A stretch of DNA of 4,525 nucleotides, taken from the IMG/VR virus record IMGVR_UViG_2751185970_000012; one strand, given 5' to 3'. The DNA comes from a virus. Lineage: Duplodnaviria; Heunggongvirae; Uroviricota; Caudoviricetes. Positions 1-4,525 of the stretch are shown one piece after another. Position numbers and translations under genes: made by a program. Each line of letters starts with the position of its first letter. Position 1 is the first letter of the stretch. Below the pieces are notes generated by a model. It did no database searches. It saw only the letters and a list, made by a program, of their open reading frames with translations, and was not told the DNA's origin.

Positions 1-302
1 ACGTCTTCGGTGAACGCACTCTGGCCACACTGGAGCGTCTTCTGAGCCTGCTGTCGGCCTTTGAGGTCGTGGTATGGATGACGGATGGCTGGCCGCTGTA
101 TGAATCACGCCTGAAGGGAAAGCTGCACGTTATCAGCAAGCGTTACACTCAGCGCATTGAGCGACATAATCTGAATCTGAGACAACATCTGGCAAGGCTG
201 GGACGGAAGTCACTGTCGTTCTCAAAATCGGTGGAGCTGCATGACAAGGTCATCGGGCATTATCTGAACATAAAACACTATCAGTAAGTTGGAGTCATTA
301 CC
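1..302 (+). mobile_element. IS1-family insertion sequence, partial: 3' ~300 bp including the right terminal inverted repeat; element continues beyond window start
   Basis: Sequence ends ...CACTATCAGTAAGTTGGAGTCATTACC at 276-302, matching the IS1 terminal repeat as I recall it; encodes InsB C-terminus; exact inverted copy at 4224-4525. Confidence 0.9.
3..287 (+). CDS. insB: IS1 transposase InsB, C-terminal portion (5' end outside window)
   Basis: Frame 3 reads [94 protein letters not shown], stop TAA 285-287; the ORF-track Met at 69 is internal. Confidence 0.9.
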
Positions 303-382
303 TCAGGCGGCCTCCTGATGTTCTGAGGGTGCAGAAATCCCTCCGGTTAAGGATTAAATTTTATTTGCTGTGCTAAATTTAA

Positions 383-838
383 TTATTCAGTTTTTATTCC
401 TGCTCTCAAAACAGCCTCTGCCATTCTGATATCCGGATTTTCTGAAATCATCTTTTCCGGCGAGTCGCAATCACCACCACATTCAGTTATGCGTTCATGA
501 CCAAAACGAATTGTGGTTTTGTGCGCATTAATCATTTGTGTAAGCGCATCTGTCAATTCTGCAATGCGTTTGTCTTTAACTTCCAGCTCTTTCAGTAAAG
601 CCAGTACGTCAGGAGCGCTAACATCAACGACGGTTACGCGCGATTTCAGGTAATGCTCATCCGCAAAAGTTCGACCAGTTTTAAAATATCCATCATCCCC
701 CTCACCTGTGCAGGCATACACAATATGCGTTCTGGAAAATATGCGCTGTATCGACATTTCATCGCCACAAACAGGACATTCCGGCACCTGAATTGGTGAA
801 TAACGTTCACGTAATGCCTGGTAATTAGTCTTGCACAC
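383..838 (-). CDS. Hypothetical phage protein, 151 aa, with CPVC and CGGDC cysteine motifs and a central coiled-coil-like segment (LKELEVKDKRIAELTDALTQ); possibly Ead/Ea22-like, family uncertain
   Basis: ORF starts with GTG at 838-836 preceded by TTTTTCAGGAGA (SD-like, 6-nt spacer); stop TAA 383-385; start overlaps upstream gene stop by 14 bp. Confidence 0.6.
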   Translation of the reverse strand: MCKTNYQALRERYSPIQVPECPVCGDEMSIQRIFSRTHIVYACTGEGDDGYFKTGRTFADEHYLKSRVTVVDVSAPDVLALLKELEVKDKRIAELTDALTQMINAHKTTIRFGHERITECGGDCDSPEKMISENPDIRMAEAVLRAGIKTE

Positions 839-1130
839 TGGCTGTCTCCTGAAAAATCACCGCATGCCCCAGTTTCTCCGCCAGCGCCAGTTCTGCCTTA
901 GCGCCTGCTGACCGCTGCCAGCCTTTCAGCATGTAAATCGCATCCACACAACGAATCATCGCCATGCAGATATCCATGTACTGCGGCTGTGTCAGCCCGT
1001 CCGGAAGTACTGCCGGGTTTAAGACGGTATGCCCTTCCCGTTTCAGTTCCTCTTCCGCATTGTGAAACGCCTCACGGTTGAAATTTTTATACCCGGTCAT
1101 TGGACCGGCGATATAGACTCTCACCCTCAC
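825..1130 (-). CDS. DUF4406-like small protein (nucleoside 2-deoxyribosyltransferase-like fold), 101 aa
   Basis: N-terminal VYIAGPMTG and downstream LKGWQRSAGAKAE motifs match the DUF4406 pattern (..IYIAGPMTG...NPA...GW..S.GA..E) as I recall it; GTG start at 1130-1128 overlaps upstream TGA as GTGA; AGGAGG 7 nt upstream. Confidence 0.75.
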   Translation of the reverse strand: MRVRVYIAGPMTGYKNFNREAFHNAEEELKREGHTVLNPAVLPDGLTQPQYMDICMAMIRCVDAIYMLKGWQRSAGAKAELALAEKLGHAVIFQETASVQD

Positions 1131-1549
1131 GCCATCACCTCCTGAAAATTACCCTGATAAAACGACAATATGCGCTGCATAACTTCGCTCTTCCGGCACT
1201 CGCGACAGATTATGTTTAGGCGACTGTCGTAGCGACGTATTTCTCCGTCAGGTAATGACCAGATAAGGTCCGGATCAACCGCAGATGGTTTCTTCAGCTT
1301 TGCCCTTGAGAGCTTTTTACGGGCATTTTGCCAGTCCTTACGCGCCTGTTCAGACGGGAATAACCCGTAACCAGAGTTGTATACATCGCCACTGGCAACC
1401 AGCTCTCTGGCCAGAACGCTCATCAGATATCTTGTTGCCCCAGTTTTAGCTTCCAGTTGTCGTAACGTCTCGCGCCCACTCTGGCGTACGAGTTCAAGAA
1501 CCTGCCCTTTAATTTTTTCCCGCTCTTCTTGTGTAAAAACTTTTGCCAC
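1127..1549 (-). CDS. Hypothetical protein, 140 aa, basic, with possible winged-helix-like N-terminal region; function unknown
   Basis: ORF with GTG start at 1549-1547 preceded by TTTTCAGGAGG (4-nt spacer); lies directly downstream of the replication initiator in the same operon. Confidence 0.6.
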   Translation of the reverse strand: MAKVFTQEEREKIKGQVLELVRQSGRETLRQLEAKTGATRYLMSVLARELVASGDVYNSGYGLFPSEQARKDWQNARKKLSRAKLKKPSAVDPDLIWSLPDGEIRRYDSRLNIICRECRKSEVMQRILSFYQGNFQEVMA

Positions 1550-1589
1550 AAGCCCTCCTGAAAATTACCTCATGACCAGAAATTAACAC

Positions 1590-2660
1590 TTACCCCCTGA
1601 AGCCCGGCGGAATTTCGTTATCCGGTTCAGAAATATGATTCACACAACGCTGGTTGTTCGTGCCGCTTACCGGGAGCAACCAGGGGTTCTCAAAATTCCG
1701 GTCCGGTCCAAAAAACGTCGTCGCTCGCTGAACAAATTCCGTTCCCGTTTTCCCGGTAGCCGCCAGGTATCTTGCGTAACGCCTCACGCCATCCAGCATG
1801 GCCTCTGGTGGCACCCCCTCGCGTAATCTGGCCTTCCAGGCACTGAAAGCGGATTTCTTCGGGTTTGCCCCGGCACGCAACGGGTACTCCCGCCAGACCT
1901 GTTCGAACACATCCGGATAATCCACTCGTCCCACAGACTGCCCGGTGTTTTCCGGGACTACCCGATCGGCTTCCCGCTGAATGGCGGAATCGGCTTCAGG
2001 CTGCTGCAGTTGGTGTGATTGCTCCGGACTTGCGGTCATCGCCTGCTGCACAGCGCCCGAATCGGCTTTCAGCGCATACGCTGAATCGGCTTCCGGTGTC
2101 GTGCCTGCTGGCTGACCAGGATTGACGGTCTGAACATCCCCTGCCTGGTTCGTGGCGTTTTTTACGCCATGGACCATAGTGTTTTGATCTTCTTGATCTG
2201 TATCTTTATCTGTATCTTTATCTGTCGTGACTCGTCGTGACATGTGCGTGACATATCGTGACGCGCCGTGACAATCGCCATTTTGTTCCCGCTTTCTTTC
2301 CCTCTCTCGCTGCGCCCTCTTGCGCTCTGCAGGAGATTTTGCGGTTTGCGAAATATTGCCGTTGTCCTCTTTCAGCACCTGGCGTTTTTCCCATCCAGTG
2401 ATTAAATCACCATCAAGTACCCGCCCCTGCATCGTCTGCAAAATTGAATCAATTACCTCTTCTGTCACGTCGAGCGCACTTGCCAAATCTTCTGTCGTGA
2501 CATCAATGTGACCTCGCGTGACATTTCGTGACGCGCTCACCAGGAGGTGGATATACACTGCCATCACTGTTGCAATTGGCTGCCCTGACACCCTGGCAAT
2601 TGTTCGCCACTTAGGGTCATTTGGCATGTCATGCCATAATCTGAGCCAGGCGTTAGCCAT
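1590..2660 (-). CDS. Phage replication initiation protein (O-like / replisome organiser type)
   Basis: 356-aa ORF from ATG 2660-2658 (AGAGGTG SD about 5 nt upstream); ORF-track start at 2666 is GTG two codons earlier. C-terminal FEQVWREYPLRAGANPKKSAFSAWKARL...FFGPDRNFENPW fits the conserved F..W..YP.K.GK..A..AW motif of phage replication initiators; internal iteron-like repeats; sits after Cro-like and CII-like genes. Confidence 0.8.
   Translation of the reverse strand: MANAWLRLWHDMPNDPKWRTIARVSGQPIATVMAVYIHLLVSASRNVTRGHIDVTTEDLASALDVTEEVIDSILQTMQGRVLDGDLITGWEKRQVLKEDNGNISQTAKSPAERKRAQRERERKREQNGDCHGASRYVTHMSRRVTTDKDTDKDTDQEDQNTMVHGVKNATNQAGDVQTVNPGQPAGTTPEADSAYALKADSGAVQQAMTASPEQSHQLQQPEADSAIQREADRVVPENTGQSVGRVDYPDVFEQVWREYPLRAGANPKKSAFSAWKARLREGVPPEAMLDGVRRYARYLAATGKTGTEFVQRATTFFGPDRNFENPWLLPVSGTNNQRCVNHISEPDNEIPPGFRG
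2196..2231. repeat. 12-bp tandem repeat ATCTGTATCTTT x2 plus a diverged third unit ATCTGTCGTGAC, encoding the acidic (DKDT)n segment of the initiator
   Basis: Direct reading of 2196-2231; abuts the first CGTGAC array; two GATC sites just upstream at 2186-2189 and 2195-2198. Confidence 0.7.
2221..2272. repeat. Iteron-like array 1: five direct CGTGAC repeats at 10-11 bp phasing
   Basis: CGTGAC at 2226, 2236, 2247, 2257 and 2267 (spacings 10, 11, 10, 10); contains the 18-mer GTGACATATCGTGACGCG, nearly identical to one in array 2. Confidence 0.6.
2464..2535. repeat. Iteron-like array 2: CGTGAC / TGTGAC at 10-11 bp phasing plus one inverted copy
   Basis: GTCACG (inverted) at 2464-2469; CGTGAC 2496-2501, TGTGAC 2507-2512, CGTGAC 2517-2522, CGTGAC 2527-2532; 18-mer GTGACATTTCGTGACGCG at 2518-2535 differs by 1 nt from 2248-2265. 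Confidence 0.6.
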
Positions 2661-2731
2661 ACTCACCTCTTTTGATACCGAATCTTTTTACTCACAAATT
2701 GCCGGAAGTGATCCGGTATGAATATTGCGAG

Positions 2732-3157
2732 TCAATGCACAGCCACAATATTTCCTGCAGGGCCACCACGATTCATCTGGTTGAAACCAGCGATCGCCAC
2801 TGCGACAAAATCATCAGCGTCTCTCACCAGTCGTTCCCGCGTCTCCACTAGTTCCCGAAAATAGGCTGAGCTATGGCTGCGCATTCGGGCCACCAGCAGA
2901 GGTGGCATTGCTTTTTCGATAGCTGGTAACAACGCCTGAATTTTTTTAAGCGCATCAGGGGTGTCTTTCTCCACCCAGCGGAAAATTTTCTGAGTATTGC
3001 GAGCCAGGGCTTCCGGATGGCTGTCGTCATACAGTTCCGGGAACGTCATTCCCAGCTCGAAATACGCTTTGGTAATTTTCGCAGCCGGTACTTTTTCGCC
3101 GTCCGGATGCGCCCAGGCATTCATCGCCATGCGGATGTGTTCATGCTTGATTTTCAT
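2732..3157 (-). CDS. CII-like regulator, YdaT-like (Rac prophage type), 141 aa
   Basis: ATG at 3157-3155 with GGGAG SD 7 nt upstream; start overlaps upstream stop as ATGA; N-terminus MKIKHEHI and position right after the Cro-like gene match my recollection of Rac YdaT; not verified by search. Confidence 0.7.
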   Translation of the reverse strand: MKIKHEHIRMAMNAWAHPDGEKVPAAKITKAYFELGMTFPELYDDSHPEALARNTQKIFRWVEKDTPDALKKIQALLPAIEKAMPPLLVARMRSHSSAYFRELVETRERLVRDADDFVAVAIAGFNQMNRGGPAGNIVAVH

Positions 3158-3408
3158 GAATCAACTCCCATCAGCTTTTTCGTAGTAGTTTTATTCCTGC
3201 CAATAGTTAAAATTGCATCGGCAGAAAATAATCCGTTTGATGCAAGAGCGATTTTTTCAGCGTAATTTGTTTCGCCGGTATATTCTGTGCGAGGCAATTT
3301 TCCGTTATCCATCCATTTATAGATTGCTCTTTGGCTGACACCACAAACGTCGGCCACAACAGCAACGCGAACAGTTTTGATTACATCTTCAAGTGTTTTC
3401 TGGTTCAT
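3154..3408 (-). CDS. Cro-like HTH DNA-binding protein (YdaS-like), 84 aa
   Basis: HTH segment VADVCGVSQRAIYKWMDNGKLP; start placed at internal ATG 3408-3406 because it follows TGAGGGTGAT (strong SD, 4-nt spacer); divergent from the repressor gene. Confidence 0.7.
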   Translation of the reverse strand: MNQKTLEDVIKTVRVAVVADVCGVSQRAIYKWMDNGKLPRTEYTGETNYAEKIALASNGLFSADAILTIGRNKTTTKKLMGVDS

Positions 3409-3487
3409 ATCACCCTCACAATGTGAACTTTGAGTACATGCCATAACAGAACTGACAGTACATTCAAGAGCGAATATCATTGAACTT
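3409..3487. promoter_or_regulatory. Divergent promoter/operator region between the Cro-like and repressor genes (OR-like)
   Basis: 79-bp intergenic region between divergent starts; two AGTACAT motifs (3433-3439, 3457-3463); rightward -35 CTGACA 3452-3457, 17-bp spacer, -10 TATCAT 3475-3480, ending 7 bp before the repressor ATG. Confidence 0.5.
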
Positions 3488-3907
3488 ATGGTTCATGAAG
3501 ATAAAGCGCGTAAAGAGTTCGCCAGTAGGCTTGCGCTAGCCTGTGAAAACGCTGGTTATGAACAACATGGAAGGCAGGCAGAAATTGCCCGTCGAATGAA
3601 ATTAACACCAAAAGCGGTTAGCAAATGGTTTAATGGCGAAACAATTCCTCGCCGGGAGAAATTAAGGGAATTAGCAACACTAATAGGAACAACACCAACC
3701 TATCTTTTGGGAGAGGATACAGAAGAAAGTGGACAGGTACGTTTCTATCAGGAGTTAAATCCAAGACAAAAAATCATCATTGACCTTCTGGACGAGCTCC
3801 CTGACAGTGAGACAGATGAACTTTTAAAAACTCTTGAAGAGAAAAAACAGAAGTACAATGCAATTTACGAAGAGTTAGCACGAAAGAAAAAACAAAAAGC
3901 CTCTTAA
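3488..3907 (+). CDS. XRE-family HTH repressor, DicA/RacR-like (CI analogue without S24 peptidase domain), 139 aa
   Basis: HTH segment QAEIARRMKLTPKAVSKWFNGETIPRREKLRELATLIGTTPTYLLGED; acidic/basic helical C-terminus; no peptidase domain; divergent from the Cro-like gene. Confidence 0.8.
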   Translation: MVHEDKARKEFASRLALACENAGYEQHGRQAEIARRMKLTPKAVSKWFNGETIPRREKLRELATLIGTTPTYLLGEDTEESGQVRFYQELNPRQKIIIDLLDELPDSETDELLKTLEEKKQKYNAIYEELARKKKQKAS

Positions 3908-3970
3908 ACCAGCATAAATCCGGTAGCGCCTTCCTCCGGGTTTGTGCTTCACTTTATCCCATCTCATTTT

Positions 3971-4030
3971 TTTACACACAAAATGTACCATAAGCACTTT
4001 ACAACAATGAACGCAAAGTACATTATATAC
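3971..4030 (+). promoter_or_regulatory. Candidate PL-like promoter/operator downstream of the repressor gene
   Basis: ATGTAC 3983-3988 (reverse complement GTACAT) and AGTACAT 4017-4023, the same motif as in the OR-like region; -35 TTTACA 3998-4003, 17-bp spacer, -10 CATTAT 4021-4026. Confidence 0.35.
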
Positions 4031-4204
4031 CTGCCACCCACCCCGCCCCACAGAATGCAGGGCAATACTTCGAGTTACCAGGCAGTGGTCAGGGGTTAAG
4101 TAGCCAGCCCGAGGCGTAAGAACATGACGGCAGGGTTCAACTTTAATAACTATGCAGCAGGTTTTTGTTCCGCTACCCCGGCGTTAAGGGGAAATGAGGT
4201 CAGC

Positions 4205-4228
4205 ATGGATACTATCGATCTTGGGTAA
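4205..4228 (+). pseudogene. 5' remnant of a rightward ORF (MDTIDLG...) interrupted by the IS1 insertion
   Basis: ATG 4205 preceded by TGAGG (5-nt spacer); reading frame runs directly into the IS1 terminus at 4224 and stops at TAA within it. Confidence 0.3.
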
Positions 4229-4525
4229 TGACTCCAACTTACTGATAGTGTTTTATGTTCAGATAATGCCCGATGACCTTGTCATGCAGCTCCACCGATT
4301 TTGAGAACGACAGTGACTTCCGTCCCAGCCTTGCCAGATGTTGTCTCAGATTCAGATTATGTCGCTCAATGCGCTGAGTGTAACGCTTGCTGATAACGTG
4401 CAGCTTTCCCTTCAGGCGTGATTCATACAGCGGCCAGCCATCCGTCATCCATACCACGACCTCAAAGGCCGACAGCAGGCTCAGAAGACGCTCCAGTGTG
4501 GCCAGAGTGCGTTCACCGAAGACGT
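4224..4525 (-). mobile_element. IS1-family insertion sequence, partial: inverted copy identical to 1-302; continues beyond window end
   Basis: 4224-4525 is the exact reverse complement of 1-302; terminal repeat GGTAATGACTCCAACTTACTGATAG faces inward. Confidence 0.9.
4239..4523 (-). CDS. insB: IS1 transposase InsB, C-terminal portion (5' end outside window)
   Basis: Translation identical to the InsB fragment at 3-287. Confidence 0.9.

Follow-up and report, generated by a model that had tools for sequence, protein, structure and literature searches.

Here we report that the two inverted IS1 ends enclosing a 4,525-nt stretch of viral DNA (IMG/VR record IMGVR_UViG_2751185970_000012; the whole stretch analysed is called the window below) most probably (probability about 0.9) record two independent IS1 hits on a decaying prophage at different times, the first accompanied by a deletion (IS1 A) and the second a simple insertion (IS1 B). 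Nothing in the arrangement points to a mobile composite unit; it is the ordinary kind of prophage decay driven by IS elements. The locus is already known, its finished genome having been publicly available for a long time, and the case carries little general weight, since IS1-driven decay of Shigella prophages and other genes is well documented. IS1 insertion and IS-associated gene loss are a documented mode of genome decay in the Shigella lineage (PMC7373316). No discussion of the IS1 junctions of this particular locus was found in the literature searched.

The reverse complement of the whole window matches the finished chromosome CP000036.1 exactly (locus L005; 100% identity, no difference), an accession that belongs to Shigella boydii Sb227 (PMC3218036). 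The comparison set consisted of ten loci or assemblies, with about 20 kb around the locus in each. Judged by its sequence, the window comes from a defective Qin/Rac-type lambdoid prophage (dicA-dicC-ydaT-O) located beside mtfA in Sb227 and close relatives of that strain. In each of the ten genomes shown, prophage DNA runs on past both IS1 copies, at an unchanged chromosomal position next to mtfA; the neighbours on the repressor side are mtfA, an integrase and an exonuclease, and those on the ead side are hokD, DUF968 and further genes (10/10 loci in both cases). The DNA between the IS1 copies, hereafter the cargo, is 99.4–100% identical across the ten loci. Inversion of the cargo by recombination of the inverted IS1 copies was considered and rejected for these genomes, the orientation relative to mtfA being constant in 10/10 loci.

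IS1 is about 768 bp long, with terminal inverted repeats of about 23 bp; its insA and insB frames are linked through an A6C frameshift site, and its transposase carries the IS1 DDE domain. A simple insertion of the element creates a target-site duplication of 8–9 bp. The ends of the window contain the following features:

1–302 (+): IS1 copy B, last 302 bp (3′ end of insB, stop codon 285–287, IRR tip 302); inverted repeat, PF03400; full element at L005 10537–11304
303–311 (unstranded): inner copy of the 9-bp target duplication of IS1 B (TCAGGCGGC; other strand GCCGCCTGA); the second copy lies just past the outer end of B, outside the window
4205–4223 (+): start of a ydfA/DUF1391 homologue, first 6 codons plus 1 nt (MDTIDL), ATG at 4205; cut by IS1 A (the DUF1391 coding sequence starts at L001 9571, and the window match stops at 9589–9590)
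4224–4525 (−): IS1 copy A, last 302 bp (IRR tip 4224); inverted repeat; full 768-bp element at L005 5848–6615; no target duplication

The initial annotation had described the first and last 302 bp as exact reverse complements, each an IS1 3′ end with its terminal repeat facing the cargo, and a base-level check of the arm ends bears this out. The arms (1–302 and 4224–4525, 302 nt each) are 100% complementary, and the inverted match ends precisely at the IS1 tip: the next base is T on the left (303) and, read as the complement of base 4223, C on the right. Each arm encodes the final 72 residues of the IS1 transposase (PF03400 DDE_Tnp_IS1, E = 3.4e-38), and both terminate in the IRR sequence GGTAATGACTCCAACTTACTGATAG, oriented toward the cargo. 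Both copies are indeed full length in Sb227 (768 bp, ends GGTAATG...CATTACC); the insA and insB frames are unbroken in each, with insA starting at GTG and the A6C frameshift motif AAAAAAC at position 307. They had also been called identical, which is correct for the 302 bp that the window includes and, in most related genomes, for all 768 bp, but the full-length copies of Sb227 differ by 1 nt at position 245. The identity of the window ends reflects the lineage-wide expansion of IS1 in Shigella: IS1 is the most expanded IS of the genus, Sb227 included, and each lineage has expanded its own resident variant (PMC7373316). Because all IS1 copies seen in the lineage are 99.7–100% alike, no linked event is needed to explain the identity of the two copies, and gene conversion was set aside as unnecessary.

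On sequence grounds, IS1 B is a simple insertion that arrived alone, because it has a duplication of its own and its empty site is preserved in another genome. In Sb227 its flanks read GAGGCCGCCTGA, IS1, GCCGCCTGAAAG, with the 9-bp sequence GCCGCCTGA on both sides. The locus without IS1 B (L010) is an exact empty site with a single copy of the 9-bp sequence, and joining the flanks of IS1 B with one copy of the repeat gives a 111-nt sequence that agrees with L010 at every base. Precise excision of IS1 B in the L010 lineage could, strictly speaking, also have left this site. In two other loci (L002 and L003), IS1 B is present but interrupted by a later IS insertion. The entry of IS1 B was an ordinary transposition into the spacer separating the ead-like gene from the next early gene, and it generated the 9-bp duplication. 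The initial annotation placed the left IS1 against the end of the leftward operon; instead, the element sits in an intergenic spacer, and prophage genes on the same strand resume beyond it.

The flanks of IS1 A in Sb227 (...GGTTGCAG, IS1, CAAGATCG...) show no repeat. The right-hand element had been said to cut a rightward reading frame after 6–7 codons, and the frame proves to be the ydfA/DUF1391 homologue, cut after 6 codons plus 1 nt. Compared with L001, 1797 bp (about 1.8 kb) are missing at IS1 A: the inner match ends at 9590 and the outer flank aligns from 11388, 245 nt into the exonuclease coding sequence. The deletion removes the rest of ydfA and the genes ydfB, ydfC, dicF, dicB and ydfD, together with 245 nt at the 5′ end of the exonuclease gene; in phage Tritos, the interval deleted at IS1 A is seen to hold ydfA, ydfB, ydfC, DicF, dicB and ydfD. 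No Rfam family matched anywhere in the window at E up to 1, so DicF is absent from it, which fits the deletion at IS1 A. Since there is no target duplication, the original insertion point of IS1 A cannot be read from the present sequence.

In L010 the outer junction of IS1 A is the same as in Sb227, and the inner one is displaced inward by 981 bp, to window base 3242 within the cro-like gene. With this extra deletion the repressor and the control region were lost at once, along with the 5′ portion of the cro-like gene. One fixed IS end combined with a variable distal end (Sb227 vs L010) is the product expected of adjacent deletions. The end points suggest that IS1 A replaced about 1.8 kb of a PL-type operon through an adjacent deletion that ran from its IRR end. 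Adjacent deletions by IS1 begin exactly at the IS terminus and leave the IS without direct repeats (PMC9330008, section 5.2.1), as seen at IS1 A, and the distal end point differs between the relatives compared here (1.8 kb or a further 981 bp). This likeness is one of end points, and homologous recombination of two IS1 copies would give the same product.

IS1 A is probably the older event, because it is common to all ten genomes shown. IS1 B probably came later, an order suggested by the one genome that lacks it (L010); if L010 never carried IS1 B, IS1 A would predate it.

The most serious alternative concerns how IS1 A came to lack a duplication, and leaves the history otherwise the same. Two direct IS1 copies about 1.8 kb apart might have recombined by homology and deleted the interval between them, which likewise yields a single IS1 without target duplication (PMC9330008), and IS1 is very dense in these genomes (PMC7373316). 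However, the second, deeper end point in L010 would call for another IS1 in the cro-like gene and another recombination; nested deletions that share one fixed IS end explain it more simply. The two-copy intermediate is found in none of the ten genomes. Recombination between two IS1 copies is thus a rather unlikely route and less likely than an adjacent deletion from the IRR end.

By family matches and gene order, the cargo is a lambdoid immunity and replication module of the DicA/Rac type. Its features, in the order of the window, are:

383–838 (−): Ead/Ea22-like protein, 151 aa; PF13935, E = 4.2e-20
825–1130 (−): DUF4406 protein, 101 aa, nucleoside 2-deoxyribosyltransferase-like; PF14359, E = 9e-38; phrog_355, E = 5e-48
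1127–1549 (−): DUF977 (YdaW/Ren-like) protein, 140 aa; PF06163, E = 3e-30; phrog_142 'Ren-like exclusion protein', E = 7e-47
1590–2660 (−): O-like replication initiator/replisome organiser, 356 aa from ATG 2660 (reading frame to GTG 2666); phrog_3729 'replication initiation protein', E = 2e-255
2191–2272 (unstranded): origin-like array within the initiator gene, consisting of the 12-bp tandem repeat TCTTTATCTGTA in 2.9 copies (2191–2225) and five CGTGAC 10–11 bp apart (2226–2272)
2464–2532 (unstranded): second cluster, four CGTGAC repeats, within the initiator gene
2732–3157 (−): YdaT-family protein in the CII position, 141 aa; PF06254, E = 1.2e-9; phrog_163 'CII-like transcriptional activator', E = 9e-45
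3154–3408 (−): HTH regulator in the Cro/DicC/YdaS position, 84 aa; phrog_35 'transcriptional repressor', E = 7e-14; HTH_17 below cut-off; Cro in phage Tritos
3409–3487 (unstranded): divergent control region between the cro-like and repressor genes, with two AGTACAT (3433, 3457) and a sigma-70-like site at 3452–3480 (+); putative function, from position only
3488–3907 (+): short DicA-like HTH repressor, 139 aa, no S24 peptidase domain; PF01381, E = 1.8e-9; CI repressor in phage Tritos
3908–4204 (+): non-coding leader in the position of dicBp (PL-like promoter), with a sigma-70-like site at 3998–4026 overlapping AGTACAT at 4017; putative, by analogy with the Qin layout

The divergent repressor and cro-like genes, followed by the CII-position regulator and the initiator, stand in the same order as in phage Tritos and E. 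coli prophages, and the reading of the cargo as a repressor, Cro, CII-position, initiator and putative origin module was sound. The repressor reading frame is intact, and the DNA of the immunity region is about 97.6% identical to Tritos; the best NCBIfam match of the repressor is DicA, whose cut-off of 101 bits it misses with 56.8. YdaT has been described as the equivalent of CII (PMC9986795). Relatives of the initiator are annotated as 'phage replisome organizer' or 'DNA replication protein O'; the protein itself had no match in Pfam, and in NCBIfam only a weak DnaT match over its last 24 residues, far below the cut-off. The repeats in its gene form an origin-like array of putative initiator sites: CGTGAC occurs 9 times against 1.83 expected, and none of 200 shuffles reached 9. 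A promoter scan of positions 3100–4300 gave two sensibly placed promoter-like sites, in a number no higher than in shuffles and thus usable as positional hints only, and a terminator scan of the same interval gave no terminator-like site.

The window resembles Qin (dicA-dicC-dicBF) and Rac (racR-ydaS-ydaT-ydaU-ydaW) of K-12 and the phage Tritos in its HTH repressor without cleavage domain, divergent cro-like gene, YdaT, O-like initiator and DUF977 protein, and on the repressor side in a PL-type promoter followed by ydfA (PMC10448788; PMC9986795), the layout in Qin being dicA-dicBp-ydfA (PMC10448788). Tritos, a functional phage, is 97.6% identical across window bases 1152–4223. The window differs from these systems in that its dicBF operon breaks off after 6 codons of ydfA and has lost the division inhibitors, and in that the repressor falls short of the NCBIfam cut-off for DicA (56.8 vs 101 bits). 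The window also differs from Qin, Rac and Tritos in having no separate helicase-loader gene (P or DnaC-like) between the initiator and the DUF977 gene.

A more far-reaching proposal has two versions: the inverted IS1 pair may now be able, as a composite transposon, to carry the repressor and the origin onto a new replicon by way of its IRL outer ends, or the module may have been retained through an 'addictive' repressor. Taken jointly, we consider them very improbable. By analogy, the repressor in the second version, like RacR in K-12, may silence harmful neighbours and would be losable only together with their promoter. If it is true that selection retains the repressor, the Shigella case would join the RacR/DicA story of cryptic-prophage regulators that are hard to lose. 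The joint removal of repressor, control region and 5′ cro-like part in L010 fits this version.

Less probable still, and to our mind hardly credible, is that IS1, cargo and IS1 together are a composite transposon that has moved or can move, carrying immunity and an origin. IS1 composite transposons are known with inverted (Tn1681) and with direct copies (Tn9), and as in Tn1681 a few kilobases of cargo, with all its genes intact, are bracketed here by two full-length inverted IS1 copies with seemingly intact frames and intact IRL outer ends. In contrast to such transposons, the outer flanks of the pair (...GGTTGCAG / ...TAGCGGTTGCAG vs GCCGCCTGAAAG..., GCCGCCTGA...) share no direct repeat, so that a duplication of 8–9 bp at the outer ends is absent from Sb227. 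The repeat GCCGCCTGA brackets IS1 B alone, and the empty site in L010 lacks IS1 B only. Moreover, the same prophage continues outside both copies, at an unchanged site, and the unit was seen in no second location, its inner junctions being found nowhere else in the collections searched.

Among 5426 complete E. coli genomes, no place covered at least 80% of the right (A) inner junction, and none of the six places covering at least 80% of the left (B) inner junction has the same junction; they are two separate pieces 270–510 bp apart or IS1 alone at 83% identity. No PLSDB plasmid record covers at least 80% of the window, the matches being IS1 alone or related prophage modules without the junctions. 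A search of species-representative genomes for the exact A junction and one of JGI metagenomes for the exact B junction, each limited to that junction, returned zero matches.

The initial annotation, which proposed that the module could move as a composite element, had itself named an intact prophage running on directly past each IS1 with flanking target duplications, as left by two independent simple insertions, as the finding that would speak against it. This is essentially the situation in Sb227 and its relatives, with the mtfA-side context present in 10/10 loci, IS1 A beside a deletion, IS1 B provided with its own duplication and empty site, and the outer flanks different; on those terms, the origin of the segment as one composite unit is already refuted. 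The two separate IS1 events at this locus may serve as a worked example of how independent insertions are told from a composite transposon: by the duplication belonging to one copy, by the exact empty site of that copy, and by nested deletions that share one fixed IS end.

We dismiss the view that one IS1, or a repeat-collapsed assembly graph, was wrongly joined to both contig ends: the window does stop at the same IS1 position at both ends, as is typical of short-read contigs breaking in a repeat, and most assemblies have the ead-like gene on contigs of 2–5 kb, but in the finished Sb227 chromosome and in 7 of the 9 other assemblies shown there are two full IS1 copies whose outer flanks differ, the Sb227 copies differ at position 245, and the inner junctions are unlike each other in sequence. 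Probably the window is one of the usual short-read contigs that end inside a repeat, and its perfect inverted ends arise because the copies are inverted, with the IRR inward, and the contig stops in the repeat. Pipelines that scan for such structures should be cautious, as short-read assembly yields perfect inverted IS ends wherever inverted multicopy IS elements bracket unique DNA. In short-read data, the ead protein is encoded mostly on contigs of 2–5 kb (232 of 354 blocks).

The window arms 1-302 and 4224-4525, of 302 nt each, are mutual reverse complements at 100% identity, and their pairing ends exactly at the IS1 inverted-repeat tip GGTAATGACTCC..., the next inward bases being unpaired. 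Both arms code for the C-terminal 72 residues of the IS1 transposase (PF03400, E 3.4e-38) and have their right terminal inverted repeats (IRR) toward the cargo, which confirms the perfect inverted IS1 3' ends described in the initial annotation. Related loci were collected by look-up of the 151-aa Ead-like protein, which led to ten NCBI assemblies. One of these, the chromosome of Shigella boydii Sb227 (CP000036.1; PMC3218036), holds the reverse complement of the entire window, base for base, and both IS1 copies are full length there (coordinates of the Sb227 locus, L005):

5848-6615, IS1 copy A, 768 bp, complete, right-hand in the window
10537-11304, IS1 copy B, 768 bp, complete, left-hand in the window

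The longest contig with the Ead-like protein was only 2-5 kb in 232 of 354 index blocks, as short-read assemblers produce where unique DNA is bracketed by a multicopy repeat. The window is very probably one such contig, with both breaks at an identical internal position of IS1.

The insA frame (GTG start) and the insB frame are intact in both copies, with an A6C frameshift motif at position 307. The sole difference between the Sb227 copies is one base at position 245, within insA; it is private to copy A of Sb227, and most related genomes have A and B copies without any difference. In this Shigella variant, insA apparently starts with GTG (VASISIRCPSC..., IS1 positions about 55-330 of copy A); that of E. 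coli K-12 IS1 starts with ATG. IS1 is the most expanded insertion sequence in Shigella, each lineage having amplified its resident variant (PMC7373316). Since all IS1 copies found in these loci are 99.7-100% alike, the likeness of A and B, once taken as a sign of recent insertion or gene conversion, carries no information particular to the two.

Copy B is a simple insertion. In Sb227, it is flanked by the 9-bp direct repeat GAGGCCGCCTGA / IS1 / GCCGCCTGAAAG, and the flanks joined with one repeat equal, exactly over 111 nt, the sequence of AMGB01000051.1 (L010), which lacks copy B and thus preserves the empty site. The target was the spacer that separates the ead-like gene from the following same-strand gene, whose ATG comes within about 20 nt, so that copy B does not mark the end of the leftward operon, as had been supposed; the operon runs on with more small genes, hokD and DUF968, and in an intact relative additionally has RusA and an antiterminator. 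Two loci (CP162080, L002, and CP162048, L003; 10537-12617) carry an IS3-family element with a 404-aa transposase inside copy B, near IS1 position 643-648. In CP162080, the distal part of copy B is missing and the sequence beyond is different, with an acyltransferase gene and Mu-like tail genes, which indicates a further rearrangement. In E. coli TW14425 (NZ_CP127265.1 4498262-4498531), CFSAN051542 and PI7, an IS1 is found within 270-510 bp of the copy B flank sequence, near a DUF7167 gene and with a different junction; these look like independent insertions in the same neighbourhood of related prophages.

The flanks of copy A in Sb227 (...TAGCGGTTGCAG / IS1 / CAAGATCGATAG...) are without a shared repeat. 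The locus was compared with the intact relative in E. coli AST240 (L001) as reference. The inner match stops at position 9590 of that locus, 19-20 nt into the DUF1391 (ydfA-like) gene, in agreement with the early truncation of a rightward ORF noted initially, and the outer flank resumes at 11388, 245 nt inside a 3'-5' exonuclease gene, which leaves 1797 bp missing. In the functional phage Tritos, 97.6% identical across most of the cargo, the missing interval contains ydfA, ydfB, ydfC, the DicF RNA, dicB and ydfD; an Rfam scan of the window gave no match, as expected with DicF deleted. L010 shares the outer junction of copy A and has its inner junction 981 bp deeper, at window base 3242 (window 3243-4223 absent; L010 7579 onward), so that it lacks the repressor gene and control region, along with some 55 codons from the 5' end of the cro-like gene. 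A constant IS end combined with a varying distal end point, in the absence of direct repeats, is the described signature of IS1 adjacent deletions (PMC9330008), and on these grounds such a deletion would have removed the interval at copy A. Recombination between two direct IS1 copies would yield an identical single product, but requires extra IS1 insertions to account for L010, and a two-copy intermediate was not seen among the ten loci. Copy A probably predates copy B, since it is present in the sole genome that lacks B.

A composite unit severed or moved by the IS1 pair, as initially proposed, was rejected: the outer ends share no 8-9 bp duplication, copy B is bracketed by a duplication of its own, with an empty site in L010, and the prophage continues past each of the independently inserted copies, the outcome named in the initial annotation as refuting the proposal. 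Among 5426 complete E. coli genomes, none has the right junction, and the left junction gave only split or low-identity matches, none of them the same junction. No PLSDB plasmid carries at least 80% of the window, and exact scans for the A junction (one genome per species) and the B junction (JGI metagenomes) returned nothing. Two intact IS1 copies could in principle move the segment; nothing suggests that this has occurred. The feature is real and was accurately described, and it is ordinary: a published genome contains a Qin/Rac-type prophage in decay that was hit by IS1 twice, independently.

On the repressor side, all ten loci have the exonuclease gene, DUF4224, an integrase remnant and mtfA; on the ead side, hokD and DUF968 are followed by an IS3-family element and remnants of another prophage. 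Cargo orientation is uniform across the ten loci, with identities of 99.4-100%. The locus is a prophage remnant eroded stepwise by IS activity.

The gene assignments of the cargo (repressor, CII, initiator and origin-like array) hold with refinements, and every cargo reading frame that was compared in the nine assemblies other than L010 keeps its length:

1590-2660, initiator, phrog_3729 'replication initiation protein' (E 2e-255)
3488-3907, repressor, short HTH_3 protein without cleavage domain, best NCBIfam match DicA (below cut-off)
'CII' gene, YdaT-family protein, classed as CII-like by PHROGs

YdaT has been described as a CII equivalent (PMC9986795), and the repressor is placed before a PL-type leader and ydfA, as is dicA in Qin (PMC10448788). 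In L010, the only genome without the repressor, the same deletion took the neighbouring promoter region and the 5' end of the cro-like gene. Such joint loss fits a repressor that cannot be lost alone, as reported for RacR of K-12, and the single case is compatible with a RacR-like 'addictive' repressor. The motif AGTACAT occurs four times in the window (0.31 expected); three copies (3433, 3457, 4017) lie in two control regions, the gap between the cro-like and repressor genes and the region upstream of ydfA, and two of these overlap sigma-70-like sites. They are candidate operator half-sites for the DicA-like repressor.

A Pfam search of the initiator gave no domain match; a PHROG with the name DnaD-like helicase loader aligns with its C-terminal half, and its last 24 residues weakly resemble the DnaT C-terminus (E 7.5e-4, far below cut-off). 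No separate helicase loader gene follows the initiator, the next genes being DUF977, DUF4406 and Ead-like. Within the initiator gene, a 12-bp tandem repeat and five CGTGAC repeats spaced 10-11 bp apart form an origin-like array, a putative origin judged by its sequence, with a second CGTGAC cluster 230 bp from the first (9 CGTGAC observed vs 1.83 expected; no shuffle attains 9). In a further related locus (L009 8167-9249), the initiator has 360 aa vs 356, and the cargo alignment has one gap with 12 extra bases, which may reflect a different number of 12-bp tandem repeat units.

An exact 16-nt repeat, CCTCCTGAAAATTACC, is located at 1138-1153 and 1554-1569, just upstream of the start codons of DUF4406 and DUF977, which are consecutive minus-strand genes; its coding-strand form, GGTAATTTTCAGGAGG, takes in the ribosome-binding site. 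Ahead of the ead-like gene, at 846-861, stands a less exact version, CTCCTGAAAAATCACC; with up to 3 mismatches allowed, just 0.03 chance matches of the 16-mer are expected. The repeats may represent conserved gene-boundary sequences such as have been linked to mosaic exchange in lambdoid phages.
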